64,000 bases of DNA, taken from positions 1-64,000 of the IMG/VR virus record IMGVR_UViG_3300040801_003999. The stretch is one strand, 5' to 3'. A model generated the notes under the pieces. The model was not told the origin of the DNA, did not search any database, and saw only the letters and a program-made list of their open reading frames with translations. Numbering within the stretch: the first letter of the stretch is position 1; every line of letters starts with the position of its first letter. A program made the position numbers and the translations under genes. The stretch is from a virus. Positions 1 to 19,312 of the stretch are shown one piece after another.

Positions 1-143
1 CCATCCTCGCGATGGAGTTGACCGTTTCTGTACCAATACTTTCTTCCATCGGGATAAATGATGGCCGGGCCATCCTCGCGATGGAGTTGGTCGTTTTTGT
101 GCCACCATTCTATTCCATCATCGTCGATTATTGGCTTACTCAT
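1..143 (-). CDS. MORN-repeat protein, N-terminal part (gene runs off the left edge)
   Basis: ATG at 143 gives MSKPIIDDDGIEWWHKNDQLHREDGPAIIYPDGRKYWYRNGQLHREDG. 23-aa MORN-like units. ATGA overlap with the stop of the upstream gene. Confidence 0.7.
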   Translation of the reverse strand, partial: MSKPIIDDDGIEWWHKNDQLHREDGPAIIYPDGRKYWYRNGQLHRED

Positions 144-204
144 GACCAAACCTCGCGAGGCTCGCGATTATTCGCGAGGCATCTCAATAGAATCTCGAAT
201 TTGG
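140..204 (-). repeat. conserved 65-nt MORN-gene 3' module, copy a
   Basis: Near-identical to 6061..6125, 18162..18226 and 18632..18696. Contains palindrome CCTCGCGAGG and hairpin CTCGCGA-ttat-TCGCGAG. Confidence 0.85.
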
Positions 205-406
205 CGCAGGGCTGGGCGTTTCTGAACCAATACTCTGTTCCATCGGAACGAATGATGGCCGGACCATCCTCGCGATGGAGTTGACCGTTTCTGTACCACC
301 ATTCTGTTCCATCGGGCTCAACGACGGCCGGTCCATCCTCGCGATGGAGTTGGCCGTTTTTGTGCCAATACTTTGTTCCATTATCGTCGATTGTTGTCTT
401 GCTCAT
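140..406 (-). CDS. MORN-repeat protein (3 units) with conserved C-terminal tail
   Basis: MSKTTIDDNGTKYWHKNGQLHREDGPA..., tail CAKFEILLRCLANNREPREVWS. Start placed at ATG 406; the track ORF 140..502 begins further upstream. Confidence 0.75.
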   Translation of the reverse strand: MSKTTIDDNGTKYWHKNGQLHREDGPAVVEPDGTEWWYRNGQLHREDGPAIIRSDGTEYWFRNAQPCAKFEILLRCLANNREPREVWS

Positions 407-830
407 GACCAAACCTCTTGTACGTGGCGCGCTCCCATTGTTCAAATGTGCGGGAGTATTTGTCTTGACCATTATTCGAACATCTCTTCGGCCGACTCTC
501 AATCATGCTGGCCTGCACTGGTTCCGACAGCCTCGACCAAGTCCCCAATATTCATCGATCCATCGCCCACCAAAGAGCAGTGCATAATAAAATTAATGAG
601 TTATGCTGCATCCTCCTCGATATTCGAGATATTCGTCCATTGTCGTCCATGCCCCCGAGATATGCTCGGGCCGTTCGGCGAGAATGATCGCGAACAACTG
701 GAGTTTGCTTGTCGAGATCTCGCCCTTGTTTGGCAAAGAGTATTCCCAAGCCTTTGCAGGATTTGCTTTAGGGCTATACAACGATCTCCATCTTCTTCCA
801 AAGTCCCAAAAAATCCCGAAAAATTGGTCG

Positions 831-1496
831 TCATTCAATGAGGGCACCGTTCAAATCATTTCGCTCCCAATAAACGATATCGCCATCATCGTACGATTCA
901 ATTTCAAAATATGTGAATTTTCGGGCGCTTGGGATCCATTTGTAATTCGCTCTCTTGAATCGCATTCTATGCAGCACCATCCGGAGATCGCGATTCTGTT
1001 GGAAATTCTTGATATTTCGATTAGCGGCAAACAATCCACCGACGAATTCAACGGTCCGATACCCAGAACCGATTGTCCTAGCATCGATATCGTGTTCCCA
1101 AAAAATGTCGTCGAGAACTGGTCCAAACTTATCTCGCATATCAGGTAGTTTCTTTTTTTGAAGCCTGCTCATCTCTTTTGCATATTGTTTAGACTCGTCG
1201 ATCTGCTCAATTGTTCCATGTTCGAGAATAATGATATAATTTTCGCTGAACATGTTCATGTGGCTAAGACAGACTTTGGGGACTTCGCATTTTCTGTTCT
1301 CTTCTAAAGATTTCAGGTGATGTTTTAGATTTCCCAGTTTATCGGGGATATCTGGTGTGTTTGGGGTCTTAACTGTTTGATTTTCTACCTTCTTTTCAGG
1401 ATGAACTTCCTCATCCTGAACGAAAATAGAGACGACTGCTCCAAGTACACACATTGCCACCATCATAACTGCAATAAACTTCATCAAACTCTTCAT
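831..1496 (-). CDS. hypothetical secreted or membrane-anchored protein
   Basis: 221-aa ORF. AAGGAGAAAAA sits just 5' of ATG 1496. N-terminal hydrophobic segment FIAVMMVAMCVLGAVVSIFV. Confidence 0.7.
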   Translation of the reverse strand: MKSLMKFIAVMMVAMCVLGAVVSIFVQDEEVHPEKKVENQTVKTPNTPDIPDKLGNLKHHLKSLEENRKCEVPKVCLSHMNMFSENYIIILEHGTIEQIDESKQYAKEMSRLQKKKLPDMRDKFGPVLDDIFWEHDIDARTIGSGYRTVEFVGGLFAANRNIKNFQQNRDLRMVLHRMRFKRANYKWIPSARKFTYFEIESYDDGDIVYWERNDLNGALIE

Positions 1497-1639
1497 TTTT
1501 TCTCCTTTGTTAAAAATGAGCGACTCCCCGTCACTCTCTAGTGTTGATCAATAATATCGTATTCATGATAACATCTCGGGCATCTGGTCGAGGTCTAAAA
1601 ATCTCGAAAAATTGGTCGTCCGTATCGAGCCACCTTAGC

Positions 1640-1667
1640 ACAAAATAGGTTCGGTCTCAAACCGAAC
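1640..1667 (-). terminator. candidate intrinsic terminator
   Basis: Minus strand: GTTCGGT-TTGAG-ACCGAAC hairpin followed by CTATTTTGT. Confidence 0.4.
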
Positions 1668-1704
1668 TGGGACATAGATTCCGGCCCCGCCCAGAGGGGG
1701 GACC

Positions 1705-1733
1705 CCTATACCATTTTCAAAACAGAATGTCAA
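1705..1733 (-). promoter_or_regulatory. sigma70-like promoter
   Basis: Minus strand TTGACA-17-TATAGG with TGg just before the -10. Confidence 0.55.
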
Positions 1734-1759
1734 GAACTTCGAGAAAGTTCTTTCACATA

Positions 1760-2110
1760 TCACATGAAGTAATCGAAGTCAAGAACTTTCTCGCCGCCGC
1801 CCCACTTGTCCCACTGATACATGCAGACTCGGCAGTCATGGTCGGGCTCTTCGTCGACAAGCTCGAAGGCCAGCGTGAGCATCTCGACAAGCCGGGCGTG
1901 GTCGTCGACCGGAAGATGTCGGTTATCCCATGCCCGAAACTGAGCGACCTGCTCGTTGTGTCGCGGGCCATCAGCGGCGAACCTCACGTCGACGGTGGGC
2001 AGGAGTCGTTCCGTTTCGGCCAGTGCCGTCTCGATGTAGTCAGCGGCTCGGCGGGCTTCGTTCAGGATGGTCGTGGCGTTGTTCATATCGTCCTCTGTGC
2101 CCCCCTTCAT
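1760..2110 (-). CDS. hypothetical protein
   Basis: 116-aa co-oriented ORF. An internal ATG (MNNATTIL) with AGAGGA upstream may be the real start. Confidence 0.55.
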   Translation of the reverse strand: MKGGTEDDMNNATTILNEARRAADYIETALAETERLLPTVDVRFAADGPRHNEQVAQFRAWDNRHLPVDDHARLVEMLTLAFELVDEEPDHDCRVCMYQWDKWGGGEKVLDFDYFM

Positions 2111-2224
2111 CGTGGGAGGGGGGTAGGTGGGTGGTAGGTATCGGGTGGCTGTATGAAGCTCTCAGCGATTCTGGTTGATGCGCTCGATGCACTGGTCGAT
2201 GCTCATGTCCTTGCCATTCAGCGA

Positions 2225-2341
2225 TCAGCAGTAGTCGTAGACAAACGTGAGGCCCTCGACCTTGACAACGGGAAGGTATCCACCATAGATGCGATACTTC
2301 AGGCCCATCTCGTCGAAGCTGTTGGTCAGTTGGTTCGTCAT
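2225..2341 (-). CDS. small hypothetical protein (38 aa)
   Basis: GGAGAGCGAAC-ATG, MTNQLTNSFDEMGLKYRIYGGYLPVVKVEGLTFVYDYC. Lies downstream of promoter 2406..2433 and is below the track size cutoff. Confidence 0.4.
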   Translation of the reverse strand: MTNQLTNSFDEMGLKYRIYGGYLPVVKVEGLTFVYDYC

Positions 2342-2405
2342 GTTCGCTCTCCGGTCAGTTGTCGTCATCGTCGGACATCAAGATGATGTCGCCTGCGTCA
2401 AGAGT

Positions 2406-2433
2406 ATTATAGCAGGCTGGTCGATGCTGTCAA
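2406..2433 (-). promoter_or_regulatory. sigma70-like promoter
   Basis: Minus strand TTGACA-16-TATAAT, TGc extended -10. The spacer contains TCGACCAG. Confidence 0.65.
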
Positions 2434-2442
2434 GGGATAATC

Positions 2443-2655
2443 TTAACTATCTCGTCGAGGCAGCAGGTCGACGAACTCGGTGTACTGGTCGCTGGGCTGG
2501 TCGACCTTTGCCCGATACTCGAAGTCCTGTTCGTCCCATGACTCAGTGGTCATGATGTCCATGGCAGTGTTGCAGCAGAATGGTGTGCTCTGGTCGTCGG
2601 TGACCATCTGGCCTGCTCCACAGTGTCGGCATTCCATGCGCGAGATAACAATCAT
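2443..2655 (-). CDS. small Cys-containing protein (zinc-ribbon-like)
   Basis: 70 aa, CRHCG...FCC. GGAGCAGCT-ATG RBS. Promoter 2706..2733 lies upstream. Confidence 0.55.
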   Translation of the reverse strand: MIVISRMECRHCGAGQMVTDDQSTPFCCNTAMDIMTTESWDEQDFEYRAKVDQPSDQYTEFVDLLPRRDS

Positions 2656-2705
2656 AGCTGCTCCGGGTTCATCGAGTTCTGGGCCATTCCCTCATCGACA
2701 AGTGC

Positions 2706-2733
2706 ATAATAGCAGATACTGGTCGACAGTCAA
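2706..2733 (-). promoter_or_regulatory. sigma70-like promoter
   Basis: Minus strand TTGACT-16-TATTAT, TGc, A-tract upstream, CTTGTCGATGAGG box downstream. The spacer contains TCGACCAG. Confidence 0.6.
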
Positions 2734-2759
2734 GAGGTTTTTTCTTTTTCTTTGTTGTT

Positions 2760-3200
2760 TTGTTTATGGTTGATTATGGTTGACACTGGAACACTTCTGT
2801 GCTAAGCATAATTCCTTTCTCGTATAGGGACCAAAAACATTAAGTTGTTGTTTTTCCTTGACTTTCTTTTTTAAGTGTGTTAAGTGAAATTAGCACAGAT
2901 TATGCTTGACATGGTTCAATTATCGTGATATGCGGGATTTATGGTTGATTCTTGGTTGATAACTGGTCGATTCTTGCTTGATTCTTGGTCGATTATGCTT
3001 GACAACTGGTCGATTCTCGTGATATGTGGGATTTATGGTCGATTCTTGGTTGATTATGCTTGACAACTGGTCGATTCTGTGCTCCTCAGGATATATCCTC
3101 CAGATTCCCCTTGACGGCTGTGCCATAGTGTGCTATATTCGTACAGTATTCGTGCATTTATCGTACATCCTTGGTGTTTTTTCTTGTATTTTGGTGTTTT
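2760..3200. repeat. non-coding iteron-like repeat region
   Basis: At least 11 copies of (A/C)TTGGT(T/C)GAT or ACTGGTCGAT. Three direct copies of GATTATGCTTGACA (2898, 2991, 3052), two of them 61 nt apart. No credible ORF. Confidence 0.8.
3111..3139 (+). promoter_or_regulatory. sigma70-like promoter on the plus strand (only one in the window)
   Basis: TTGACG-17-TATATT with TGc extended -10. Points rightward, antisense to the genes at 3206-3530. Confidence 0.55.
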
Positions 3201-3329
3201 GGTAGTCAAATAGCTCTGGTTTTTATACTAAGTTCGACCAGCCACGCACCATTCTCGCACAGGCGCTGTACATTAATTGTACAGGCAATGTACCAGCATC
3301 GTACACACTGTTGAACACAGGTCACACAC

Positions 3330-3530
3330 TCATATATCCATGGCACACTGATACTGACACCCTGAACAGCAAGTACAGACTCGATTAGAGCCACCAATTT
3401 CCTGAGCATAGGGACAGACATGAGGACTCTCGCCTCGTTGGTCACAGATCGGACAGACCGGCTCAGGATAGTGCTCGTCTGTATAGAGGACACGCTCGCC
3501 AACTCTCTGAATCTTCTTTTTATCAATCAT
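3330..3530 (-). CDS. small Cys-rich protein
   Basis: 66 aa, AAGGAGGTCTGGGA-ATG. Contains CPICD...CPY...CTCCSGCQYQC. Paralog of 3901..4140. Confidence 0.55.
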   Translation of the reverse strand: MIDKKKIQRVGERVLYTDEHYPEPVCPICDQRGESPHVCPYAQEIGGSNRVCTCCSGCQYQCAMDI

Positions 3531-3689
3531 TCCCAGACCTCCTTGACGCGTTCAATCACCAGAGGGCCCAAATACCCATCATCATCATACCAGTCCCACA
3601 CCATTCTCGCACAGGCGCTGTACATTCATGGTACAGCCACTATACCAACATCGTTCGCACTGTTGAACACCCACATCACACACTCTCAC

Positions 3690-3890
3690 TCACCCAACAT
3701 ACTCGAAGAGACACCAGTTGTAACTGTAAAGCTTTTGTTTCCTTACCGGGTTACCTCTTCTATCATGCGTTATCCTGACATGTGCGATACATCCAGCAGT
3801 GGGATGAAGTGTATAATCCTCGATGATACCAGTCCAACGTGCTTTGTATAGAGACCGAACCCGACGCCCAATAACAGGTCTCTTCTTCAT
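3690..3890 (-). CDS. hypothetical protein (66 aa)
   Basis: GAGGAGAGTGCT-ATG, MKKRPVIGRRVRSLYKARW... The upstream part of track ORF 3690..4142 overlaps the Cys-rich gene. Confidence 0.6.
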   Translation of the reverse strand: MKKRPVIGRRVRSLYKARWTGIIEDYTLHPTAGCIAHVRITHDRRGNPVRKQKLYSYNWCLFEYVG

Positions 3891-3900
3891 AGCACTCTCC

Positions 3901-4140: not shown

Positions 4141-4169
4141 ATTATGCCAGACTATCGCTCAGCTGTCAA
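4141..4169 (-). promoter_or_regulatory. sigma70-like promoter
   Basis: Minus strand TTGACA-17-CATAAT, TGg. Confidence 0.5.
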
Positions 4170-4540: not shown

Positions 4541-4589
4541 CGTTGTTGCTCCGCTTGTTCGTCGTGGGCCATTCCTCATCGACAAATAC

Positions 4590-4617
4590 ATTATAGCGCA
4601 ATCTGCTCAGGTGTCAA
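4590..4617 (-). promoter_or_regulatory. sigma70-like promoter
   Basis: Minus strand TTGACA-16-TATAAT, A-tract upstream, TTGTCGATGAGG box downstream. Confidence 0.65.
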
Positions 4618-4625
4618 GCACTTTT

Positions 4626-4886
4626 TTACTTTTCTTCTTCGGAGCGAAGAGATATCGAAACCATTTCCATTTCGCCGATAGTGTCGCCGGAGTTGGCGCT
4701 CGCGATTACTTTGCGACCGTTGTACATGCGCTGGGTGAACTTGGTGATGAGGCCCGCATCGGCATCGAAGTTCGCGTACACATCGGCATGGAGGTCGAGG
4801 AACATCACCGGTTCGTCGGCATCATCTTCATAGATGCGAAGGCTAACATATCCTTCCTCTTCTACAAACTCGTGTCGAAATGCCAT
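4626..4886 (-). CDS. hypothetical protein
   Basis: AAGGAGAGGAGC-ATG, MAFRHEFVEEEGYVSLRIYEDD... Confidence 0.65.
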   Translation of the reverse strand: MAFRHEFVEEEGYVSLRIYEDDADEPVMFLDLHADVYANFDADAGLITKFTQRMYNGRKVIASANSGDTIGEMEMVSISLRSEEEK

Positions 4887-5204: not shown

Positions 5205-5242
5205 GCTCTTTCTCCTGTGCGTGTTCCCTCATCGACAAGAAC

Positions 5243-5270
5243 ATTATAGCAGCTTGTCGGTCGGTGTCAA
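5243..5270 (-). promoter_or_regulatory. sigma70-like promoter
   Basis: Minus strand TTGACA-16-TATAAT, TGc, A-tract, CTTGTCGATGAGGGAAC box. Confidence 0.7.
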
Positions 5271-5330
5271 GAGGTTTTTTTCAACTTTCTTCGTCGGCCT
5301 TTTTCAACGACCTCTCCCAGCGACAAGAGC

Positions 5331-5881: not shown

Positions 5882-5909
5882 ATTATAACAGGCTTTCTGG
5901 TGTTGTCAA
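5882..5909 (-). promoter_or_regulatory. sigma70-like promoter
   Basis: Minus strand TTGACA-16-TATAAT, TGt. Confidence 0.65.
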
Positions 5910-6060
5910 GAGGTTTTCTCTCTTTCTTTCCATGGTAAAGCGTGCGCATCGAGCGTGCGCGCACCGTGGTCGGGTACGGGGGCACTGGTGGGGTGGTAGA
6001 GCTTTATTTGGCTTGGTGCGTTATCAGGATAGTAGACAATAGTACAATCCACAGAGATAC

Positions 6061-6125
6061 TCATGGCCAAACCTCGCGAGGCTCGCGATCATTCGCGAGG
6101 CATCTCAATATAATCTCGAATTTGG
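6061..6125 (-). repeat. conserved 65-nt MORN-gene 3' module, copy b
   Basis: tcatggccaaacctcgcgaggctcgcgatcattcgcgaggcatctcaatataatctcgaatttgg. Only a few mismatches to copies a, c and d. Confidence 0.85.
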
Positions 6126-6603
6126 TGCAAGACTGGCCGTTTCTGTACCACTCCCTTGTTCCATCGGAATGAACGATGGCCGGGCCATCCTCACGATGGA
6201 GTCGACCGTTTCTGTACCAACACTTTCTTCCATTGGGAAAAATGATGGCCGGACCATCCTCGCGATGACGTCGGCCGTTTCTGTACCAATACTTTCTTCC
6301 ATCGGAATCAACGACGGCCGGACCATCCTCGCGATGGAGTCGGTCGTTTCTGTACCAATACTTTCTTCCATCGGGATAAACGACGGCCGGACCATCCTCG
6401 CGATGACGTCGGTCGTTTCTGTACCAATACTTTCTTCCATCGGGATAAACGACGGCCGGCCCATCCTCGCGATGACGTCGGCCGTTTCTGTACCATCTTT
6501 TTGTTCCATCGAGCTTAACGACGGCCGGACCATCCTCGCGATGACGTCGGTCGTTTCTGTACCACGTCTTTGTTCCATCATCGCCGATTATTGGCTTACT
6601 CAT
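6061..6603 (-). CDS. MORN-repeat protein (7 units)
   Basis: MSKPIIGDDGTKTWYRNDRRHREDGPAVV... in 23-aa units. Tail CTKFEILRCLANDREPREVWP. Confidence 0.8.
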   Translation of the reverse strand: MSKPIIGDDGTKTWYRNDRRHREDGPAVVKLDGTKRWYRNGRRHREDGPAVVYPDGRKYWYRNDRRHREDGPAVVYPDGRKYWYRNDRLHREDGPAVVDSDGRKYWYRNGRRHREDGPAIIFPNGRKCWYRNGRLHREDGPAIVHSDGTREWYRNGQSCTKFEIILRCLANDREPREVWP

Positions 6604-6886
6604 ATTGAAACGTTACGAATTCCAGCCAAATATCAGCGTCGCTCGTCGAGTGCAGACCGAAGTTGAACGCCGGCAGGTTATCGTTCAGCATGTCGATAAG
6701 TTCTTCTACGCGCTCACACCGGGTGCCAGCCTTACTGAGTAGGTCGACCTCCAAGAAGCCCACCAGACCCTTTGTGACACTCGCTTCGACGAACTTCATG
6801 CGCACAGCACCATAGCCACAAAAGTCAGCGAGACCAGAGCAGGTTGCAAGAATGCTTGACATATCGATTGAAAACAAAGTTTGCAT
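6596..6886 (-). CDS. hypothetical protein, paralog of 12320..12604
   Basis: GGGAGTGTC-ATG. MQTLFSIDMSSILATCSGLADFCGYG...FGLHSTSDADIWLEF aligns with MTEFMIDMSDILDACAGIADSCGYD...FGLHSTGDATIWLEF. Confidence 0.65.
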   Translation of the reverse strand: MQTLFSIDMSSILATCSGLADFCGYGAVRMKFVEASVTKGLVGFLEVDLLSKAGTRCERVEELIDMLNDNLPAFNFGLHSTSDADIWLEFVTFQYE

Positions 6887-6894
6887 GACACTCC

Positions 6895-7287
6895 CTAGTA
6901 TTCTATTCGTTTGGTTTGCAGTATTGCGGTGCCGTCGTTGGTGAACTCCAATCCCATGAAGGCGTCGCCGCAACTTCCCCATGTAGCAATCCACAGTGGC
7001 GTGGTTTCATCCATCTCAAAGGTGCCCCCCTTATAGCCGGTAAACACTTTGCCTATGCAGGCGCGAGCTTCTATGAGGACCTCAGAGGCCGGTCTCGGTG
7101 GTGTGCATGGCTCGAATGCGAGGTCGCGATAATATCCTCGATAGGAATGAGGCTTTCCAATCCCAATCTTGGCGCTCTCTGGCGCTGCTTCGAGAACCTG
7201 AATCAAATTGCCCAGCGTTAGATGATAGTTTGAACGAGTTCGCGCGCCTTCCTCATCGATTGCCTCAAACAATTTTCCAATGTCCAT
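6895..7287 (-). CDS. hypothetical protein
   Basis: 130-aa co-oriented ORF with AGGAGATAAA-ATG. Confidence 0.65.
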   Translation of the reverse strand: MDIGKLFEAIDEEGARTRSNYHLTLGNLIQVLEAAPESAKIGIGKPHSYRGYYRDLAFEPCTPPRPASEVLIEARACIGKVFTGYKGGTFEMDETTPLWIATWGSCGDAFMGLEFTNDGTAILQTKRIEY

Positions 7288-7868: not shown

Positions 7869-7916
7869 ACCTCTCGCCATCCTGCCCTCTTTATTTGTTC
7901 CCTCATCGACAAGTGC

Positions 7917-7944
7917 ATTATAGCAGCTTTCCGGTCGCTGTCAA
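7917..7944 (-). promoter_or_regulatory. sigma70-like promoter
   Basis: Minus strand TTGACA-16-TATAAT, TGc, A-tract, CTTGTCGATGAGGGAAC box. Confidence 0.7.
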
Positions 7945-8028
7945 GCGGTTTTTTATTTTTTATGTTGTTTTTTCGTGCCTTCTAAGTTCGAGCTACGTCT
8001 CCGATAGATATGCCATCGAGATATAAAT

Positions 8029-8419: not shown

Positions 8420-8454
8420 CGTGTTCCTTTGTTGGTTTCCTCATCGACAAGAAC

Positions 8455-8482
8455 ATTATAGCAGCTTGTCGGTCGCTGTCAA
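8455..8482 (-). promoter_or_regulatory. sigma70-like promoter
   Basis: Minus strand TTGACA-16-TATAAT, TGc, A-tract, CTTGTCGATGAGGAAAC box. Confidence 0.7.
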
Positions 8483-8868
8483 GAGGTTTTTTCGAGCTTT
8501 TTCAGTTCGTATTGGATGCCATCAATCTCGACCACTCGACCAGAATAGTCGGTGTTGTCTTTTGTACCTGCGGTGCGTCGAAGGAACTCTTCTTCGCTCA
8601 GTTGTTCGCCATGAAGATACCACTTTCTTCCATTGGGATAAATGATGGCCGGGCCATCCTCGCGATGACGTCGGTCGTTTCTGTACCAATACTTTCTTCC
8701 ATCGGGAAAAACGACGGCCGGACCATCCTCGCGATGGAGTTGGTCGTTTCTGTACCATTCCCTTGTTCCATCGGAATAAACGACGGCCGGACCATCCTCG
8801 CGATGAAGCAGGCCCTGCTGATTCTTCCAGATCTCTTTTCCATCAGTAATTTCTACAGTATAAATCAC
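8479..8868 (-). CDS. MORN-repeat protein (3 units) with a different C-terminal domain
   Basis: LHREDGPAVVYSDGTREWYRNDQLHREDGPAVVFPDGRKYWYRNDRRHREDGPAIIYPNGRKWYLHGEQLSEEEF. Confidence 0.75.
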   Translation of the reverse strand: MIYTVEITDGKEIWKNQQGLLHREDGPAVVYSDGTREWYRNDQLHREDGPAVVFPDGRKYWYRNDRRHREDGPAIIYPNGRKWYLHGEQLSEEEFLRRTAGTKDNTDYSGRVVEIDGIQYELKKLEKTS

Positions 8869-8919: not shown

Positions 8920-9213
8920 TCATTCTTCGTCATTTGTTGTGGTTTGTTTCCATGGCAGAGCTTCCACCGACGATTCACCGTGAGGCATCATCTCATCAAT
9001 AAACTCTGCGAGGCCTTCAGCCCACTCTCTCGCTTCATTCACATCTACACGATCTCCAATACTCGGCACAATCTCGTGTCGAAGGTAGGACAGGGCCGCG
9101 GCGGCGTCATCGGCCTCGCCGGGATAGGCTTCATTTTCGCACATGAACTTCATGTCGGCCTCGGCCAAATCTGCGATGGTCCTGAGCGATCGCTGTAGTT
9201 TTTCTTTGGTCAT
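8920..9213 (-). CDS. hypothetical acidic protein
   Basis: GAGAGGTTGAA-ATG, MTKEKLQRSLRTIADLAE... Downstream of promoter 9261..9288. Confidence 0.65.
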   Translation of the reverse strand: MTKEKLQRSLRTIADLAEADMKFMCENEAYPGEADDAAAALSYLRHEIVPSIGDRVDVNEAREWAEGLAEFIDEMMPHGESSVEALPWKQTTTNDEE

Positions 9214-9260
9214 TTCAACCTCTCTTTTCAAGAAACCAAGTATCCCTTGTTGACAACTAT

Positions 9261-9288
9261 ATTATAGCGGCTTTCCGGTCGGTGTCAA
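9261..9288 (-). promoter_or_regulatory. sigma70-like promoter
   Basis: Minus strand TTGACA-16-TATAAT, A-tract upstream, TTGTCAACAAGGG downstream. Confidence 0.65.
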
Positions 9289-9503
9289 GAGGTTTTTTCT
9301 TTTCTTTGCCACATAACGTGCACTGGTGGTGCATAACCCTTCTCACCTTCAACAAAAATGGCGAAGAATAGCGAGACCATAGACGATAAACCACCATCGT
9401 ACATCCAATAATGCGAACAATTTAGATCTCGCCAAGGATCGTACAAATACACGCCATTTATACTAGAATTGACCGGGTATGCTTTAGAATTGCGTCTAAT
9501 CAT
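9285..9503 (-). CDS. hypothetical protein
   Basis: 72-aa co-oriented ORF filling the gap. Its 3' end overlaps promoter 9261..9288. Confidence 0.4.
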   Translation of the reverse strand: MIRRNSKAYPVNSSINGVYLYDPWRDLNCSHYWMYDGGLSSMVSLFFAIFVEGEKGYAPPVHVMWQRKEKTS

Positions 9504-10756
9504 CAGAGCACCGTCACTCGGTTCACCTTAGTCTGCTTCTCGCCCTCGTACTGATCATGGTCTTTGATGGTCGCCTTGATGCGAGCGCTCTCGCCCACCG
9601 TGAGGTCAGCAGGGCTGCTCGTGAACCATGTCAGGATGTCGCCCTGCTCGGTGACAAACTTCATGAGCGTCGTGAGGCCATAGTATCCCTCGAAGCTCGT
9701 GCAGAATTCAAGAGTAACATCGAACTCCATGCGCTGCTTAGGCTCTCCGACCCACTCAGAGGCACGCTCAGCCATTTCTTCTGCCCGACGCTCAGCCTTG
9801 TGCTCGCGCTCGGCTCGGATGCGTGCAGCAGGGATTGCAGCGGCCACCAGACCCATTTCCTTGTGAGTGATGAACTCTCGCTCAAGCGCAGCGATGAGAT
9901 TGAACTCAAAATTGTTGCTCGGCTTGATGTCTTCAAGAAGAGTGTTGCGAAGGTCAACTGCCTCTGCACGCTTATCGACGATTGCATCCTCGGCCGAGGC
10001 GAAACTTTTAAACTCAGGGAAGCCCTGAAGTTTCCCGTCAGGCTGACGGCGGCCGGCTGCAAGGTTCACAAGCAGGTGTCCGGCAAGGTCGGCCGTAGCA
10101 TTGTCACCAGTGGCCTTAGAACGACTCAGAAAACCACCTTCGATGTCGCAAATAACCAAGCAGGTCGCAAGGAAGTCGACAATGGGCCATGCAGTGGGCA
10201 CAGATGAGCCAAGAGTCTCCCGCTCATCCCAACTTTGGACCAACTCGACGATAGCCGTGGCCTTGCTCGCGAGAGTCGCAATGTCCTTCGGGATAAAGTC
10301 TTTGAGACATGTCGAGCCAACCTGCATGCTGTGGGAGTCCTCGTCACGGATGACGTAGACGTCGTGGCGCTCTCGGTTGTGGCCGCAATGGTCGCAGGCC
10401 GTAACATCACCCTGACGCCACGAGAGAAGCTCGTCCTCGGTCACTTGGTCGTTGACCGCGTGGATGATGGGCGAGGCATGGCTGCAATCAATCTTGGCCA
10501 CCACCTGCCAGCCATCGACGAATGGGGCAACGCCCTCAAGCACGTAGTTAACAAAGGTCTTTCTGACTTTCTTTGGAATGTTGCTGGTGCCGCTCAGGAC
10601 GGTGACCTCGGCGACATATGGCTCGCCGAAACTGACCGATACACCGGGAAGGTCGAGCTTTGCAGCAGTCTTGTTCAGGTCCTTGACCATCTCGTTGAGA
10701 CGTCCGGTCATCCATGCGAGGCATCGGCCTGTGAGCTTGGTAGCTTCGTTGTTCAT
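9503..10756 (-). CDS. hypothetical protein (417 aa) with CxxC...C cluster
   Basis: MNNEATKLTGRC..., CDHCGHNRERHDVYVIRDEDSHSMQVGSTC. Start set to the first ATG after promoter 10795..10822. Confidence 0.7.
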   Translation of the reverse strand: MNNEATKLTGRCLAWMTGRLNEMVKDLNKTAAKLDLPGVSVSFGEPYVAEVTVLSGTSNIPKKVRKTFVNYVLEGVAPFVDGWQVVAKIDCSHASPIIHAVNDQVTEDELLSWRQGDVTACDHCGHNRERHDVYVIRDEDSHSMQVGSTCLKDFIPKDIATLASKATAIVELVQSWDERETLGSSVPTAWPIVDFLATCLVICDIEGGFLSRSKATGDNATADLAGHLLVNLAAGRRQPDGKLQGFPEFKSFASAEDAIVDKRAEAVDLRNTLLEDIKPSNNFEFNLIAALEREFITHKEMGLVAAAIPAARIRAEREHKAERRAEEMAERASEWVGEPKQRMEFDVTLEFCTSFEGYYGLTTLMKFVTEQGDILTWFTSSPADLTVGESARIKATIKDHDQYEGEKQTKVNRVTVL

Positions 10757-10794
10757 CGTGTATCTCGTGCGCTGTGTTCCCGTTGACAAGAACA

Positions 10795-10822
10795 ATAATA
10801 GCAGCTATTCAGAGATTGTCAA
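10795..10822 (-). promoter_or_regulatory. sigma70-like promoter
   Basis: Minus strand TTGACA-16-TATTAT, TGc, A-tract. Confidence 0.65.
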
Positions 10823-12319: not shown

Positions 12320-12604
12320 TTAATCTTTGTTTGTTGTGAACTCCAGCCAGATAGTAGCATCTCCCGTCGAGTGTAGTCCGAAGTCGAATACTCCCACTTC
12401 GTCATTAAGCATGCTGATCAACTGGTCGACTCTGAGTACCTTGCGGCCATTTGAATCGACGAGATCGACCTTCAGAAAGCCAGTCAGACCGAGAGTCTTC
12501 GATAGCTCGACATCAGCGAAGTGAACTTCGTCATACCCACACGAGTCGGCGATACCAGCGCAGGCATCAAGAATATCAGACATGTCAATCATAAACTCGG
12601 TCAT
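12320..12604 (-). CDS. hypothetical protein, paralog of 6596..6886
   Basis: 94 aa. Shares the DMS.IL..C.G.AD.CGY ... FGLHST.DA.IWLEF pattern with 6596..6886. Confidence 0.65.
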   Translation of the reverse strand: MTEFMIDMSDILDACAGIADSCGYDEVHFADVELSKTLGLTGFLKVDLVDSNGRKVLRVDQLISMLNDEVGVFDFGLHSTGDATIWLEFTTNKD

Positions 12605-13478: not shown

Positions 13479-13525
13479 CGGTATTCTCCGTGTGTGTGAT
13501 GAGGCCACTCCCCATCGACAACAAC

Positions 13526-13553
13526 ATAATAACAGATTCTCGGCGACTGTCAA
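13526..13553 (-). promoter_or_regulatory. sigma70-like promoter
   Basis: Minus strand TTGACA-16-TATTAT, TGt, TTGTCGATGGGG box. Confidence 0.65.
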
Positions 13554-13563
13554 GAACTTTCTT

Positions 13564-14091
13564 TTATTTTTCGAGATACCCAGCATCCTTCAGGTAACCC
13601 TCGAAAAACACGTCCATGATGTCATGGTCGTAGGCGTTGGTGACGAACCGGTCATCATCACTCAGATCGCTGAAGGTTGTGTGTGCGCCAGAGCTAAGAT
13701 CGACGAAGCCTGCGTCATCTTCAATTTTAATGTAGAAGGGGCGTCCATCTTTGGTATGGTGCCTAATTAGCTCGGATGATATTTCCGCCATAATCTCGAA
13801 TGAACCATTAGGGTTCCAGCGCACAATGGTCCCTGCTGGCACCTGATCGATTGTTGGCGTGACCACTTCGATTGTATCTACAGAGTGCAATCTGCCGTCG
13901 AGCGTGGCGACGTGTTTGCCATGAGCAGTGGCCAGAACAAAACCTCGATTCTCGGCAGGCTCGCCATTAGCATTCTGCAACACGACCCTCGGGACTGTGT
14001 TGTCACCAGTGACAAGCACTGAAGTGCCAGCGGGAAAGCGAGAGATCGAAACAGCTTGAGTGTCGTTCATGCGATGCATTTGTATCACCAT
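13564..14091 (-). CDS. hypothetical protein
   Basis: 175-aa co-oriented ORF downstream of promoter 14137..14164. Confidence 0.65.
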   Translation of the reverse strand: MVIQMHRMNDTQAVSISRFPAGTSVLVTGDNTVPRVVLQNANGEPAENRGFVLATAHGKHVATLDGRLHSVDTIEVVTPTIDQVPAGTIVRWNPNGSFEIMAEISSELIRHHTKDGRPFYIKIEDDAGFVDLSSGAHTTFSDLSDDDRFVTNAYDHDIMDVFFEGYLKDAGYLEK

Positions 14092-14990: not shown

Positions 14991-15697
14991 TTGAGTCGGT
15001 TGTTGTGCTTCTGTCGACCGGCTCGCCGGCCAGCAGCGTAAGCATCACTGTGATGTCGCGAACGTGACTGTTTAGAGGACACAGTGCGTGGATGAAATTT
15101 CTTGACTGCACCCTCGACCTTGGTCATCTGGTCCTTGACGACCACCAGCGCGTGCTCGTCGAGATTTTGCTTCTCTTCGCGAAGTTCTCGCTGAACCCGC
15201 TCATCAACACCTGCCACAAAACCATCATACCATGAGATCTTCCATGTGCGGTCAGAGCCCCACATACTCTTATGCTCATCATATGCGGCATCGGCGAGGT
15301 CCTCAGCGACCTTCAAAAGCGTCTGGAAGCCTCGAAGGAATGCATTCTTGTCCTCTTCAGCGCCGATGATATACAGCGAGTTGGTTCGCCCGCTACAGCC
15401 CAGCACCTTGCAAAAATATGCGGGCGACAACTTCCATGCCAGATTCCTGCGCCAACTGATAGCTCGTCGTTTTTTGCGGTCGCCCCACTCGGTGGCCTCG
15501 ACATAAAAAGACTCAGGCTCAGAAGCACTCTTGGCCTCGCCAGACAGGTCGAGGTCAGCAATCTCCAGCTTATGCTCGACCATGAGAGCGCGAGCCTTGG
15601 CTGCAAAGGCCTCGGCCTCGGCCTGACTCCCGATAGACTCGGCGGATTCTGCGTGGACGAAGAGTTTTTCGATTCGATTGATAACTTTTTCGTTCAT
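14987..15697 (-). CDS. conserved phage protein (DUF2786-like N-terminus, tentative)
   Basis: N-terminus KVINRIEKLFVHAESAESIGSQAEAEAFAAKARALMVEHKLE resembles the helical K..KLLALAEST..E.EAE.A..KA..L motif. Confidence 0.6.
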   Translation of the reverse strand: MNEKVINRIEKLFVHAESAESIGSQAEAEAFAAKARALMVEHKLEIADLDLSGEAKSASEPESFYVEATEWGDRKKRRAISWRRNLAWKLSPAYFCKVLGCSGRTNSLYIIGAEEDKNAFLRGFQTLLKVAEDLADAAYDEHKSMWGSDRTWKISWYDGFVAGVDERVQRELREEKQNLDEHALVVVKDQMTKVEGAVKKFHPRTVSSKQSRSRHHSDAYAAGRRAGRQKHNNRLK

Positions 15698-15724
15698 GTT
15701 GTTTCCTCTGTTAGCGACAGATAC

Positions 15725-15752
15725 ATAATAGCAGCCGCAAAGAGATTGTCAA
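15725..15752 (-). promoter_or_regulatory. sigma70-like promoter
   Basis: Minus strand TTGACA-16-TATTAT, TGc. Confidence 0.65.
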
Positions 15753-15769
15753 GAGGTTTCTTGAGAAAT

Positions 15770-16300
15770 TTAGTCAGCGAATTGGTGATTGACAACATGC
15801 TCGAAATCTAGTACAGTATCATTCACATCCGCCCGAGAAACTCCCTGAAGCATATCGTCGAGCGCCGTAGAGATCTTCTCATCGAGAGTGAGTTCTTCGT
15901 CGACTAAATCCGTGGTCTGTATTGGTGCCTTGCCGCGCGAAACTTCAAATGGTTTTTGCAATTTGTTAAAAAAAATGTATACGAGCCACGCCCACAAAAG
16001 ACTGTACGCAGGCGGTTTGGTAGAATTATACCGGACATAGAGAATATTCGTATCGTTTTTTGTATACTTAGTAAATTCTGAATGTGATGTATATATCTTG
16101 AGACTTTCTACTTGACACGGATGAATACCCAGATGAGTGCACACATCTCTCTGGAACTCGAACAAGGTCCAGTCTACGCGCATGGTCTCGTCCTCACACC
16201 AAAATCGTTTGACTTCGTTATCTTCAGCCCAATGCCACTGCATTTCGCCAGTCGGGGCGAGTTCGTTAATATTTATTTGAGCTTTGTGTGTAATCTTCAT
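15770..16300 (-). CDS. hypothetical protein
   Basis: 176-aa co-oriented ORF with GAGTGGATAG-ATG. Confidence 0.65.
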   Translation of the reverse strand: MKITHKAQININELAPTGEMQWHWAEDNEVKRFWCEDETMRVDWTLFEFQRDVCTHLGIHPCQVESLKIYTSHSEFTKYTKNDTNILYVRYNSTKPPAYSLLWAWLVYIFFNKLQKPFEVSRGKAPIQTTDLVDEELTLDEKISTALDDMLQGVSRADVNDTVLDFEHVVNHQFAD

Positions 16301-16336
16301 CTATCCACTCGCTGTATGTGCAGGGGTACCCCTCCA

Positions 16337-16429
16337 CTACTTCCACTCAGGCCATTTAGCGACTTTTTGACTCATCTTCTCCGCGCGCCTAATCTCCGGC
16401 GCTCGCATGTTTTCGATGTCGCTGTTCAT
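16337..16429 (-). CDS. very small ORF (30 aa)
   Basis: ATGA overlap with 16426..16602. MNSDIENMRAPEIRRAEKMSQKVAKWPEWK. Confidence 0.3.
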   Translation of the reverse strand: MNSDIENMRAPEIRRAEKMSQKVAKWPEWK

Positions 16430-16602
16430 TCTTCCGCCTTATCCTCAGCCTTCTCGGTCGGGGGCTTTTCTTGTTTCTTGTGATTAAAAATCTCAGCCGC
16501 GCAGTCGAAACAAGCAGCCGTGCCGAAGACACAGATACACTCCACAACCTCGCCGCAGAAGTCGCAACGGTCAAGCGAGAAGAACCAGCGCCAGTCACTC
16601 AT
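16426..16602 (-). CDS. small zinc-ribbon-like protein (58 aa)
   Basis: GAGGGTACATGAT-ATG. MSDWRWFFSLDRCDFCGEVVECICVFGTAACFDCAAEIF... More protein-like than track ORF 16389..16598 in another frame. Confidence 0.5.
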   Translation of the reverse strand: MSDWRWFFSLDRCDFCGEVVECICVFGTAACFDCAAEIFNHKKQEKPPTEKAEDKAEE

Positions 16603-16794
16603 ATCATGTACCCTCGGGTGTGTCTGGGGGGATAATCCCGTGCCGGTCTACGATCATCCACCCGTCCTCAGTCTCTACCCTCCGGTATCCGGGGGACGTA
16701 TCGACTATTCCTATGTTTACCTTGATTCCCACATTACTTCCACTTGCATCCGGCCTTCCATTCCTTCTCGGAGGCCTACGTCTCTAGAATGCAA

Positions 16795-16866
16795 TACTCC
16801 CGTCAGGATTCGAACCTGAGTCTGTCAGTTATAAGCTGACTGCTCTAACCATTGAGCTACGAGAGC
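16795..16866 (-). tRNA. tRNA-Ile (anticodon UAU)
   Basis: Hand-folded 72-nt cloverleaf: GCTCTCG/CGGGAGT acceptor, GCTC/GAGC D-stem, GTCAG-CTTATAA-CTGAC, TCAGG-TTCGAAT-CCTGA. Confidence 0.8.
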
Positions 16867-16869
16867 ATA

Positions 16870-16942
16870 TGGGCCGTGAGGGATTCGAACCCCCATCTCA
16901 CCGGTTATGAGCCGGGTGCCTTAACCATTAGACCAACAGCCC
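16870..16942 (-). tRNA. tRNA with anticodon CAU (Met, or Ile2 if modified)
   Basis: 73-nt cloverleaf: GGGCTGT/ACGGCCC acceptor, anticodon loop CTCATAA, GGGGG-TTCGAAT-CCCTC. One C-U mismatch at the top of the anticodon stem. Confidence 0.75.
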
Positions 16943-16954
16943 TTACCACTTCCG

Positions 16955-17971
16955 TCAATTACAACAGCGCGCAGGCTGACTCACATCGTCTCGAACACAT
17001 TCGCATACAGGCTCGGTGTGGTCCCGCTCGTCGAGCATGGCATCTTCTCGACGGGCTGGTGTTCGGTCGTCTGCAACCTTGTCGATTGAAGCCTCCCCGT
17101 CCACGTATAGGTTCCACTCGTCGACCAACTCGCACATCTCACGGACGCTAATTTTAGCCGAGTCCCACTGGCCCGTCACACGCGCGACGTCCTCGACCGT
17201 CGGGTTTTCCGGCGCGTCGCCATCTGGCCAAATCTGGTCGATGGTTAGCGTCGAATCAACGTTCAGTCTGAATCGAAATTTTGTATCGTCACTCATTGTC
17301 GGACCAGTCGGGTGATCGGAGGAATGTGGCTCAAACAGAGCAGCCGCATCCGTCTTCGCGCGATGGGCACCGGCCCATACGACCGCCTTTTCGTGGATGA
17401 AATCACACCTATACATGAAGAACACCAATTCATGCGTGACCCCTCGACGAATTCTCGTGAGAATTTGGGACGCTGAATATGATTCCAGTCTATCTGCCAC
17501 CCACGAATCATATGCCATTCGGAAATCTTCCGAATTTGCATACAACTCCAGAGCAAACTCGTCCAGTCTTTTGTTAAAATCGATAGCAGCATCAATGAGA
17601 CCGGTATCCTGAATTTTCTTCATGAGATTTCCCGTCTCGAAGACGGTCATACCAACATATTCGCCGAACAACTCGGATTCAGACATACTGCCATACAATT
17701 CAGGGTTTGACCAGCGCATCGTATCGAAAGTGCCGCCGTTGGTCGAGTCCTCTTCGAGTTCGATCGTCGTGAAGTCAATGAAAATACAATCCTCTTCGAC
17801 CCACTCTAGACCGGCTGAACATTTGAACGGACCCGTTTCAAACTCGACCACAGTGTCGGCAATCATTTGGCTGAGCGACTGTTCGGCCAAGATGAAGTCG
17901 GCCAGCTTGTCCTCGTCATGCTTGAGAAGATCAAACATTGCTGCGTTAAATTGTTTTTCTTTGTTTGGCAT
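16955..17971 (-). CDS. hypothetical protein (338 aa)
   Basis: Long co-oriented ORF downstream of tandem promoters 17998..18025 and 18108..18135. Confidence 0.7.
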   Translation of the reverse strand: MPNKEKQFNAAMFDLLKHDEDKLADFILAEQSLSQMIADTVVEFETGPFKCSAGLEWVEEDCIFIDFTTIELEEDSTNGGTFDTMRWSNPELYGSMSESELFGEYVGMTVFETGNLMKKIQDTGLIDAAIDFNKRLDEFALELYANSEDFRMAYDSWVADRLESYSASQILTRIRRGVTHELVFFMYRCDFIHEKAVVWAGAHRAKTDAAALFEPHSSDHPTGPTMSDDTKFRFRLNVDSTLTIDQIWPDGDAPENPTVEDVARVTGQWDSAKISVREMCELVDEWNLYVDGEASIDKVADDRTPARREDAMLDERDHTEPVCECVRDDVSQPARCCN

Positions 17972-17997
17972 GCGTCATCTCCATTCTTGGTGGGTTA

Positions 17998-18025
17998 ATT
18001 ATAGCGCGCGGTGAGAACCTGTCAA
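17998..18025 (-). promoter_or_regulatory. sigma70-like promoter
   Basis: Minus strand TTGACA-16-TATAAT, A-tract. Confidence 0.65.
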
Positions 18026-18107
18026 GTACTTTTTTTCTTCTTTTTCTTCAGCAAGATTTTGCTCAAGTTCCATAAATGCTTTGAAGACCTCATCATCGTC
18101 GAAATCC

Positions 18108-18135
18108 ATTGTAACACCCTCCTGCGAATTGTCAA
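18108..18135 (-). promoter_or_regulatory. sigma70-like promoter (tandem)
   Basis: Minus strand TTGACA-16-TACAAT, TGt. Overlaps the stop of the MORN gene 18132..18635. Confidence 0.55.
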
Positions 18136-18635
18136 GATCTTTTTCGGAAATCTTTGACGATGCTTGACCAAACCTCGCGAGGCTCGCGATTATTCGCGAG
18201 GCATCTCAATAGAATTTCGAATTTGGTGCAAAGCCGGCCGTTTCTGCACCACCACTTTCTTCCATCGGGAAAAATGACGGCCGGACCATCCTCGCGATGG
18301 AGTCCGCCATTTCTGCACCACTTCTTTGTTCCATCGGGCTCAACGACGGCCGGTCCATCCTCGCGATGGAGTTGGCCGTTTTTGTGCCAATACTTTGTTC
18401 CATCAGGATGAACGATGGCCGGACCATCCTCGCGATGGACTCGGTCATTTCTGTACCAACTCTTTGTTCCATCGGAATAAATGATGGCCGGGCCATCCTC
18501 GCGATGGAGTTGACCGTTTCTGCGCCACTCCCTTGTTCCATCGGGATAAATGATGGCCGGACCATCCTCGCGATGGAGTTGGTCGTTTTTGTGCCAATAT
18601 TTTGTTCCATCATCGTTGATTATTAATTTACTCAT
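18132..18635 (-). CDS. MORN-repeat protein (6 units)
   Basis: MSKLIINDDGTKYWHKNDQLHREDGPAIIYPDGTREW... The usual tail stop TGA is changed to AGC, adding SIVKDFRKRS. ATGA overlap with the upstream gene. Confidence 0.8.
   Translation of the reverse strand: MSKLIINDDGTKYWHKNDQLHREDGPAIIYPDGTREWRRNGQLHREDGPAIIYSDGTKSWYRNDRVHREDGPAIVHPDGTKYWHKNGQLHREDGPAVVEPDGTKKWCRNGGLHREDGPAVIFPDGRKWWCRNGRLCTKFEILLRCLANNREPREVWSSIVKDFRKRS
18162..18226 (-). repeat. conserved 65-nt MORN-gene 3' module, copy c
   Basis: Same module as 140..204, with the terminal TCATGA replaced by GCTTGA. Confidence 0.85.
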
Positions 18636-18696
18636 GACCAAACCTCGCGAGGCTCGCGATTATTCGCGAGGCATCTCAATAGAATCTCGAATTTGG
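18632..18696 (-). repeat. conserved 65-nt MORN-gene 3' module, copy d
   Basis: Essentially identical to 140..204. Confidence 0.85.
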
Positions 18697-19312
18697 TGCA
18701 AAGCCGGCCGTTTCTGTACCAACACTCTGTTCCATCGGAATAAACGACGGCCGGACCATCCTCGCGATGGAGTCGGCCGTTTCTGTACCAACACTCTGTT
18801 CCATCGGGATGAGTGCTGGCCGGGCCATCCTCGCGATGGAATTGGCCGTTTCTGTACCACTTCTTTGTTCCATCAGGATGAACGATGGCCGGGCCATCCT
18901 CGCGATGGAATCGGCCGTTTCTGTACCAATATTTTGTTCCATCGGGATGAACGATGGCCGGGCCATCCTCGCGATGGAGTCGGCCGTTTCTGTACCAATA
19001 TTTTGTTCCATCGGGATGAACGATGGCCGGGCCATCCTCGCGATGGAGTCGGCCGTTTCTGAACCACTCCCTTGTTCCATCGGGCTTAACGATGGCCGGA
19101 CCATCCTCGCGATGGAGTTGGTCGTTTCTGTACCACCATTCTGCTCCATCGGGATCAACGACGGCCGGGCCATCCTCGCGATGGAATTGACCGTTTCTGA
19201 ACCACTTCTTTGTTCCATCGGAATAAATGATGGCCGGCCCATCCTCGCGATGGAGTTGACCGTTTCTGCGCCACTTCTTTGTTCCATCATCGCCGATTAT
19301 TGGCTTACTCAT
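18632..19312 (-). CDS. MORN-repeat protein (8-9 units)
   Basis: MSKPIIGDDGTKKWRRNGQLHREDGPAIIYSDGTKKWFRNGQFHREDGPA... in 69-nt units. Tail CTKFEILLRCLANNREPREVWS. Confidence 0.8.
   Translation of the reverse strand: MSKPIIGDDGTKKWRRNGQLHREDGPAIIYSDGTKKWFRNGQFHREDGPAVVDPDGAEWWYRNDQLHREDGPAIVKPDGTREWFRNGRLHREDGPAIVHPDGTKYWYRNGRLHREDGPAIVHPDGTKYWYRNGRFHREDGPAIVHPDGTKKWYRNGQFHREDGPASTHPDGTECWYRNGRLHREDGPAVVYSDGTECWYRNGRLCTKFEILLRCLANNREPREVWS

Follow-up and report, generated by a model that had tools for sequence, protein, structure and literature searches.

MORN repeats, whose canonical signature is YxGxWxxGKxHGxG, are among the closest described counterparts of the gene family examined here, a set of small genes built from 69-nucleotide (nt) units in positions 1 to 64,000 of IMG/VR virus record IMGVR_UViG_3300040801_003999 (hereafter the window, 64,000 nt in all). 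This family is a lineage-specific expansion of a very common, functionally uncharacterised MORN-like scaffold, located in a promoter-dense block of a novel phage. For comparison, solved eukaryotic MORN structures include TbMORN1, TgMORN1 and PfMORN1 (6t68, 6t69 and 6t4d), junctophilin-1/2 (7rw4, 7rxe) and MORN4 (6jle). Work on TbMORN1 has presented MORN repeats as modules of protein-protein interaction and tail-to-tail dimerisation; TbMORN1 itself bound no membranes in vivo or in vitro and no vesicles, and membrane binding by MORN repeats is disputed (PMC7725318). MORN-repeat multigene families have also been described for giant viruses (PMC5753266), and in marine viral samples MORN-repeat proteins were 37-fold enriched in long reads over assemblies (PMC9238414). 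By sequence, the families nearest to the phage genes are MORN_2 (PF07661), with COG2849 YwqK, and DUF6745 (PF20530). A literature search found no paper naming DUF6745, and the YwqK/MORN papers it returned deal with Fusobacterium and with the Pseudomonas T6SS.

A first-pass annotation had predicted six repeat genes, and all six are confirmed in place and on the minus strand (g1 to g6, Table 1). The unit counts then given for the complete genes (3, 7, 3, 6 and 8-9) agree with ours when full and truncated units are added: two plus one in g2, six plus one in g3, three and a degenerate end in g4, five plus one in g5, and eight plus one in g6. Tandem Repeats Finder reported a period of 69 at 217-381, 6135-6579, 8622-8808, 18235-18611 and 18705-19288, with 81-88% matches, and the spacing from core to core is exactly 23 residues in every gene, which is the MORN-type period. 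The HREDGPA core, claimed to be invariant, is indeed so in 24 of 24 in-register units, and a six-frame motif scan of the whole 64 kb found such cores only in the six genes. Five of the six start, as had been noticed, with an MSK-type head, MSK(P/T/L)(I/T)I.D(D/N)G; the odd member is g4, with the head MIYTVEI and a canonical end (WYLHGEQLSEEEF...GRVVEIDGIQYELKK). Calling the units near-identical was an overstatement, their DNA identity ranging from 74 to 99% with a mean of 83%.

Six members are a lower bound, because a 1,815-nt contig of the Joint Genome Institute (JGI), L011, shows the start of a seventh. This contig is 100% identical to window positions 1-1403 and extends 412 nt beyond the left edge; it completes g1 as a protein of 180 residues (six full units, a truncated seventh and the tail shared by the family), and after g1 there follow an ATGA and ATGAGTAAGCCAATAA (MSKPI...), outside the window. 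In the arrays every frame of both strands is open, and the JGI gene caller chose an out-of-frame open reading frame (ORF) for g1, g3 and g5 (L011 1331-1759, L015 1143-1550 and positions 89-496 of the g5 contig, respectively) and called nothing for g4 on contig L013. Because of the off-frame calls, most members are missing from protein collections: cluster look-ups with both in-frame and off-frame products recovered g2 alone, whose exact protein is on record on two contigs. Exact-protein look-ups of g6, a 338-residue neighbour, GroEL and an 81-residue upstream gene found none of them on record.

As to the fold of these proteins, g6 was modelled with AlphaFold2 from an alignment of the paralogs and 41 homologues, with very high confidence (predicted local distance difference test, pLDDT, 95.4; predicted template modelling score, pTM, 0.86); in the model the strand pattern is regular in every unit, and residues 207-216, inside the tail, are helical. 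Each protein consists of nothing but 23-residue MORN-like units, predicted beta-hairpins that stack into an elongated single-layer sheet, closed in five members by a predicted family-specific C-terminal helix. The paralogs differ in sheet length, from two to eight full units, and in surface charge, with isoelectric points (pI) from 5.4 to 9.9; g3 is strongly basic (pI 9.9, net charge +13). When the g6 model was compared to the PDB by Foldseek, all 26 matches at E<=1e-3 were MORN proteins, namely TbMORN1, TgMORN1, PfMORN1, junctophilin-1/2, MORN4 and radial-spoke or axonemal MORN-type chains, with the eukaryotic structures listed above at the top (E 1e-9 to 1e-4, probability 1.0). Against BFVD, the same model matched uncharacterised Caudovirales proteins (TM-score 0.86), mimivirus R871, and Marseillevirus and giant-virus 'MORN repeat' proteins.

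The phage and eukaryotic proteins have in common the 23-residue period and, on the phage side by prediction, beta-hairpin units stacked as an elongated single-layer antiparallel sheet, features that belong to the structure-based definition of the repeat by Sajko et al. (2020); TbMORN1, like the phage family, consists of repeats only (PMC7725318). They differ in that the phage proteins are much smaller, end in the family-specific helix and show no detectable sequence relation to eukaryotic MORN, their own signature being W(Y)RNGxLHREDGPA with an NG turn. Pfam MORN (PF02493) matched none of the six proteins even at E<=1. MORN_2 was among the weak Pfam matches in four of the six, covering positions 6-17 of its 22-position model, but stayed below its gathering score (14.1-19.5 bits versus 29.6), and Tcp10_C, the single-layer sheet of the CPAP G-box (PF07202), stayed below its own (17-28 bits versus 36). 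DUF6745 reached 32-64 bits in four proteins at a cut-off of 27, with only ~20-40 of its 206 positions aligned, the aligned stretch being the repeat-like part at profile positions ~56-104. Nothing in NCBIfam scored above threshold. The MORN identity proposed at first pass therefore stands by fold (26 of 26 PDB matches) and by period, and fails by sequence, and we regard the family as MORN-like on the model and its period while lying outside Pfam MORN. PDB sequence matches to designed propellers (Cake, Scone), WD40 proteins and curlin repeats were rejected as compositional, because they are summed 10-residue PDGTxxW matches with a different period.

The repeat has a very large number of relatives. 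With g6 as query, more than 7,300 proteins scored E<=1e-5; with g2, the matches at E<=1e-3 numbered 28,430 representatives of clusters formed at 50% identity. Their sources include bacteria, phages and a large virus-like contig, their names are nearly all 'hypothetical', and many carry precomputed PF20530 matches. The superfamily to which the repeat belongs is thus uncharacterised and very common in viruses and bacteria, and the repeat is among the commonest uncharacterised protein building blocks of viral and bacterial metagenomes. Small stand-alone repeat proteins with the same repeat at 32-56% identity, again located among small unannotated genes, occur in other phages: Celeribacter phage P12053L (gp09), Agrobacterium phage Atu_ph07, an uncultured member of the Caudovirales (A0A6J5RWU4) and IMG/VR loci L004-L007. 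Atu_ph07 has nine matching places and P12053L four. The four paralogs on L006, of 3-5 units each, have a head and a tail common to them, and three are tandem neighbours that overlap by 4 nt; L004 and L001 each carry several copies. With at least seven members of up to eight full units, the family described here has more of both than the other phage loci examined. Its member g4 matches P12053L gp09 at 47-51% identity over head, units and C-end, a similar head is also found on IMG/VR contig L005, and C-termini of the g4 type (W.LNG...EE.F) recur in the set of 41 homologues; by these alignments g4 is in a subfamily common to other phages. The best database match, P0001 (61% identity), comes from a 551-kb contig whose gene content looked giant-virus-like and whose locus holds three such genes. 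Like the phage, giant viruses (Pandoravirus, Marseillevirus, mimiviruses) have expanded MORN-type paralogs; unlike those of the phage, their hosts are eukaryotic, and as a rule the giant-virus proteins are longer, some of them carrying F-box, kinase or other domains as fusions.

How the family has grown can be read from its units. Nine of the 23 residues per unit are invariant over the 24 in-register units (nonsynonymous diversity, pN, of 0), seven of them forming HREDGPA, and the recurrence of the invariant W..N(G/D)..HREDGPA residues in every unit is consistent with a structural role. Substitutions fall at ~14 positions, which also vary across the superfamily; at the 14 codons variable per unit the ratio of nonsynonymous to synonymous diversity (pN/pS) is 1.5, so that an analysis of selection by repeat position, which had been put forward at first pass, is clear for the core and does not separate positive selection from relaxed constraint elsewhere. 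Diversity is lowest at third codon positions (0.145, versus 0.174 at second and 0.180 at first), the opposite of ordinary purifying selection. The nearest relative of a unit often lies in another gene (g2.1/g5.4 95.7%, g4.3/g3.3 95.7%, g1.1/g5.1 92.8%), and unit identity within genes (83.8%) is barely above that between genes (80.8%). These patterns fit recent duplication of units and genes, exchange between copies, and diversifying or relaxed selection; the family appears to have grown by duplication both of 69-nt units and of whole head-units-tail genes, with units exchanged between copies. A functionally neutral or selfish expansion, in which the arrays persist through ready amplification of their 69-nt units and the products do nothing specific, would sit well with a third-position diversity not above that at first or second positions, as under weak constraint at many sites, with unit numbers that vary freely between paralogs and with other duplicated orphan genes in the same block. 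We nevertheless hold it to be very unlikely: at least seven copies keep an intact frame, start, tail and Shine-Dalgarno junction, the nine invariant residues show pN = 0 over 24 units, and the repeat is conserved in tens of thousands of proteins.

Five members end in a common 22-residue tail, C(T/A)KFEI(L/I)LRCLAN(N/D)REPREVW(S/P). Alignment of tails and heads showed that the last tail codons include a GAGG Shine-Dalgarno motif together with the ATGA that belongs to the following gene, making a junction cassette with copies at 140-208, 6061-6129, 18165-18230 and 18632-18700; its 28-nt core occurs four times in the window versus an expected zero. The two gene pairs said to be coupled by ATGA are borne out, with overlaps at 140-143 (g2 stop, g1 start) and 18632-18635 (g6 stop, g5 start), and in g5, the last gene of the g6-g5 pair, the ATGA is lost at the 10-residue extension. 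The non-repeat gene coupled to the end of g3 opens with ATGAGTA, as the family heads do, and the start of g3 overlaps the stop of the upstream gene at 6596-6994 (ATGAGTAA). This upstream gene is itself one of a second pair of paralogs in the block (6596-6994 and 12320-12604, minus strand), 58% identical over 90 residues and without family assignment. None of the 41 homologues checked ends in the shared tail, a library search showed no such tail in its top 150, and a 42-residue tail query gave no candidates. The exact DNA core of the tail and a fully degenerate back-translation of FEILLRCLANNREPREVW had no matches in viral, metagenome and genome contigs, and the MSK head with the CTKFEILLRCLANNREPREVWS tail of five to six members was not found elsewhere; these negatives are weak, because the collections searched also missed L011 and the source contig.

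Might the repeats act as nucleic acid rather than protein, as protein-binding sites, hairpins or recombination signals with incidental reading frames, or be an assembly artefact? Synonymous sites in the core codons are almost frozen, except for the wobble of Gly18 (C9, T11, A2, G2), the units contain palindromes such as GATGGNCCGGCCATC, and to these points come the open frames and wrong-frame calls for g1, g3 and g5 described above. Only one frame, however, gives the motif of thousands of proteins and a fold predicted at a pLDDT of 95, and g1, g2 and g4 recur in independent contigs without a base changed except in one patch, which speaks against an artefact in the family as a whole. We give this explanation hardly any credence. 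The tail is palindromic (CTCGCGA-ATAA-TCGCGAG, CCTCGCGAGG) and might thereby hide the GAGG motif; an RNA-level role for it was likewise rejected, since the tail and junction RNA folds no better than shuffled sequences (z -0.6 to -1.5) and Rfam returned no family besides tRNA. As a separate observation, Gly18, codon 18 of the unit (e.g., 19232-19234 and 18956-18958), lies within the imperfect palindrome GATGGNCCGGCCATC.

Turning to expression, the window DNA is that of a novel, large (~192 kb), lytic-type phage, with a DnaE-type polymerase, DnaB, UvsX, ribonucleotide reductase, GroEL, an RNA ligase with a LAGLIDADG insert, an amidase and three tRNAs; the source contig measures 192,483 nt. The minus strand carries every gene taken as real and every listed ORF of 250 residues or more, and the first 20 kb are a block of small genes, most of them orphans. 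The window contains 31 TTGAC[AGT]-N16/17-TA[TC][AT]AT sites, every one of them on the minus strand, where the genes lie, with the plus strand free of such sites. Of these, 23 fall in the first 20 kb, including 11 perfect (12/12) ones. An A-tract lies upstream of most sites, and a TGn extended -10 is found in many; examples from window positions 1-22500, minus strand, are 18025-17998, 13098-13071, 9288-9261, 8482-8455, 7944-7917, 5270-5243 and 2433-2406. The sigma-70 promoters, Shine-Dalgarno sites and operons point to a bacterial host, and the promoter-dense small-gene context suggests host-polymerase-driven, probably early, cytoplasmic expression, which argues against surface proteins.

The first-pass annotation had seen in the family a variable set of surface- or membrane-binding proteins. 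We find no support for this idea: the N-termini, of the MSKPIIGDDG type, show no signal peptide, lipobox, transmembrane or hydrophobic segment (grand average of hydropathy, GRAVY, -1.1 to -1.5), the genes lie outside the virion genes, and membrane binding by MORN repeats is disputed (PMC7725318). A MORN-like repeat protein at 8414-9100 of L004, a 253-kb IMG/VR viral contig, does start with a twin-arginine-like signal (NRREMLKATIAGGAVA...), and some superfamily members, unlike those of the window, may by this sequence feature be exported.

We tentatively favour a family of at least seven paralogs particular to this lineage, small and soluble proteins of the cytoplasm that would serve as early protein-binding modules for host takeover or counter-defence. 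Host RNA polymerase would transcribe the genes from consensus sigma-70 promoters, in translationally coupled operons and probably early in infection. By analogy with solved MORN proteins, the products may be protein-protein interaction modules that bind or sequester host or phage partners for takeover or counter-defence, and diversification of length and surface could confer different or broader target specificity. Cytoplasmic protein-binding modules with diversified length and surface are thus the most likely role. Several results weigh against this picture: TM-scores to solved MORN proteins are just 0.45-0.5, and a search of the PDB with the unit profile fails to reach MORN chains; the matching PHROGs are all of unknown function, PADLOC gave nothing above threshold, and the neighbours of the repeat genes are orphans without a functional hint. 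Moreover, a pN/pS of 1.5 among intragenomic repeats fits positive selection and relaxed constraint alike, and promoter consensus and gene context make up the whole case for early expression.

The weak MORN_2 matches raise the question of whether the proteins are YwqK-like immunity proteins or antitoxins (MORN_2/COG2849) that neutralise host toxins, for example of abortive-infection or polymorphic toxin systems, which would be one specific form of counter-defence. One homologue, P0094, was named 'antitoxin component YwqK' by JGI, and multi-paralog, fast-diversifying sets of binders are typical of immunity genes. The MORN_2 scores remain below the gathering threshold, however, PADLOC matched nothing, and, in contrast to the YwqK type, there is no toxin partner nearby: the adjacent genes lack family assignments, and a scan of ten larger neighbour proteins found no toxin family, only DUF2786/DUF7168 and two PHROGs of unknown function. 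On balance, we judge such an activity to be unlikely.

Table 1. Features of the repeat-gene block, in window positions
Feature	Position	Strand	Description
g1	1..143	-	5' part only, gene cut by the window edge; complete gene on contig L011
g2	140..406	-	88 residues: MSK head, 2 full units, truncated unit, tail
Non-repeat gene	5906..6064	-	52 residues, ATGA-coupled to the end of g3; called as a 52-residue gene on L015
g3	6061..6603	-	180 residues: 6 full units, truncated unit, tail
Promoter	7917..7944	-	Perfect consensus; heads an operon with g3 as fifth gene
g4	8479..8868	-	129 residues, GTG start, 3 units, then degenerate end
Promoter	9261..9288	-	Perfect TTGACA-N16-TATAAT; heads the two-gene unit 8920-9231 and g4
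g5	18132..18635	-	167 residues: 5 full units, truncated unit, tail, 10-residue extension
g6	18632..19312	-	226 residues: 8 full units, truncated unit, tail; protein used for the structure model
Tail/junction cassette	18632..18700	-	Tail codons, GAGG Shine-Dalgarno motif, ATGA

Variation was assessed on short contigs of the same phage in three sister JGI samples, which were retrieved by exact-protein look-ups and cover 5,655 window bases. Outside the repeat genes, they differ from the window by one mismatch in 4,316 bases, versus two events in 1,339 bases inside them. In L015, g3 lacks exactly unit 3 (-69 nt, leaving 157 residues) between identical flanks of 1,120 and 715 nt, and a 52-nt exact direct repeat inside g3 flanks the difference. 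In L013, g4 carries 14 substitutions, all of them in an 82-nt patch (8694-8775) within 1,886 nt that are otherwise identical; they amount to eight residue changes at variable positions and three synonymous sites. No donor for this patch was found among the known copies, and 11 of the 14 differences involve an A, weakly above chance. In contrast, g1, g2 and, by a gene layout that implies an unchanged length, g5 show no difference in independent contigs. A diversity-generating retroelement was rejected as the source of variation, with no reverse transcriptase among the window proteins scanned and all bases involved at the variable unit positions.

These differences are suggestive of unstable arrays and may also be due to assembly error. 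A further contig, L012, ends inside the same 52-nt repeat of g3, which points to a low effective assembly k; under such conditions, short-read assembly could plausibly collapse a loop in g3 or produce a chimera in g4 by way of a paralogous unit. Two events in 1.3 kb versus one in 4.3 kb does not look significant either, as judged without a formal test. The expectation from the first pass that the arrays would expand, contract and undergo gene conversion has some support: mosaic units, the 52-nt repeat and two array-confined differences speak for it, and both differences may be artefacts. Apparent copy-number and sequence variation among isolates, likewise anticipated, was seen in two sister contigs (g3, g4) and in none for g1, g2 and g5. 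If the array-confined differences are real, the locus is an example of rapid repeat-mediated diversification in a lytic phage.

Two further explanations build on this variation. The first is a contingency-type set of variable surface or membrane-binding proteins, whose unit number often shifts by slippage or recombination and makes the population heterogeneous. It can draw on the 52-nt exact repeat in g3 and the sister contig one unit shorter, on the 14-substitution patch in g4, on units mosaic between genes, and on the under-recovery of MORN-repeat genes by short-read assembly of marine viruses (PMC9238414). It must also contend with very hydrophilic proteins that have no signal peptide, lipobox or transmembrane segment, with genes that sit among small promoter-proximal ones away from structural genes, with a MORN1 that showed no membrane binding in vivo or in vitro (PMC7725318), with a low-k de Bruijn assembly that could yield both sister differences and break L012 in the 52-nt repeat, and with g1, g2 and g5 unchanged in independent contigs; in sum, it seems to us very doubtful. 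The second is a phage-encoded binder repertoire: a constant head and tail would surround a recombining array of cassettes, and unit gain, unit loss and patch conversion at exposed positions would generate, over ecological time scales, population variants selected as decoys or inhibitors of host defence proteins. We regard this as improbable as well; were it true, the two array-confined differences would be the first glimpse of such a process.

Returning to the favoured protein-binding modules, the phage provides a compact natural series of one scaffold, with 2, 5, 6, 6 and 8 full units, identical ends in five members and predicted host-type promoters, and hence a convenient entry point for finding binding partners. 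Wrong-frame gene calls, together with broken and possibly collapsed short-read assemblies, imply that such families are systematically under-represented in protein databases.

The phage itself has no close relative in INPHARED (megablast of 1-20 kb), and the proteins tested stayed below 40% identity. For the flanking protein at 9503-10795, no relative was found in IMG/VR or JGI contigs; in the protein database it matched short Logan contigs only, at 61-90% identity, which end in promoter cassettes. No repeat genes were present on the Logan contigs L009 (DNA scanned) and L010 (gene calls). The cassette in question, of ~76 nt, accompanies seven promoters of the window (2676-2751, 4560-4635, 5213-5288, 7887-7962, 8425-8500, 9231-9306 and 13496-13571) and recurs at the beginning and end of the related L009. 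It contains an inverted repeat, CGACAAG...CTTGTCG, with one arm on either side of the -10 box and GATGAGG next to it; the repeat looks like a putative operator at which one regulator could act on all seven promoters. A 226-residue protein with several helix-turn-helix or sigma-70 region-4-like segments (20760-21440, minus strand), encoded directly behind a promoter at 21534, is by its sequence a candidate for regulating the promoter array.

This gene marks the boundary of the small-gene block, which is also visible in base composition: positions 1-21000 have a GC content of 0.47-0.52 (0.58 at third codon positions, GC3, over 11 genes), and the replication block at 22000-64000 has 0.39-0.45 (GC3 0.41, seven genes). 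The repeat genes match the small-gene block in composition. Also within this block are tRNA genes for Ile (TAT), Met (CAT) and Glu (CTC) at 16794-16942 and 20651-20725 (minus strand), non-coding-looking tandem repeats of 11, 22 and 32 nt with a GATTC(T/A)TGGTT motif (2936-3078), and a pair of 82-nt direct repeats (3237-3318 and 3589-3670), 87% identical and 352 nt apart.

Beyond the block, the 791-residue RNA ligase (29924-32299) has its LAGLIDADG segment at residues ~302-491, either an intein or an inserted endonuclease. Three accessory genes, all on the minus strand, follow. The GroEL-type chaperonin (40876-42456) shares 37-39% identity with its counterparts in Flavobacterium and Vibrio phages; the other two encode an amidase_2 endolysin that carries a PG_binding_1 domain (43133-44011) and an enzyme of the IMPDH/GMP-reductase family (45761-46852). 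Finally, tandem repeats of 18 and 51 nt, the 51-mer with 96% matches, lie at 44473-44736 inside the ORF 44341-45096.

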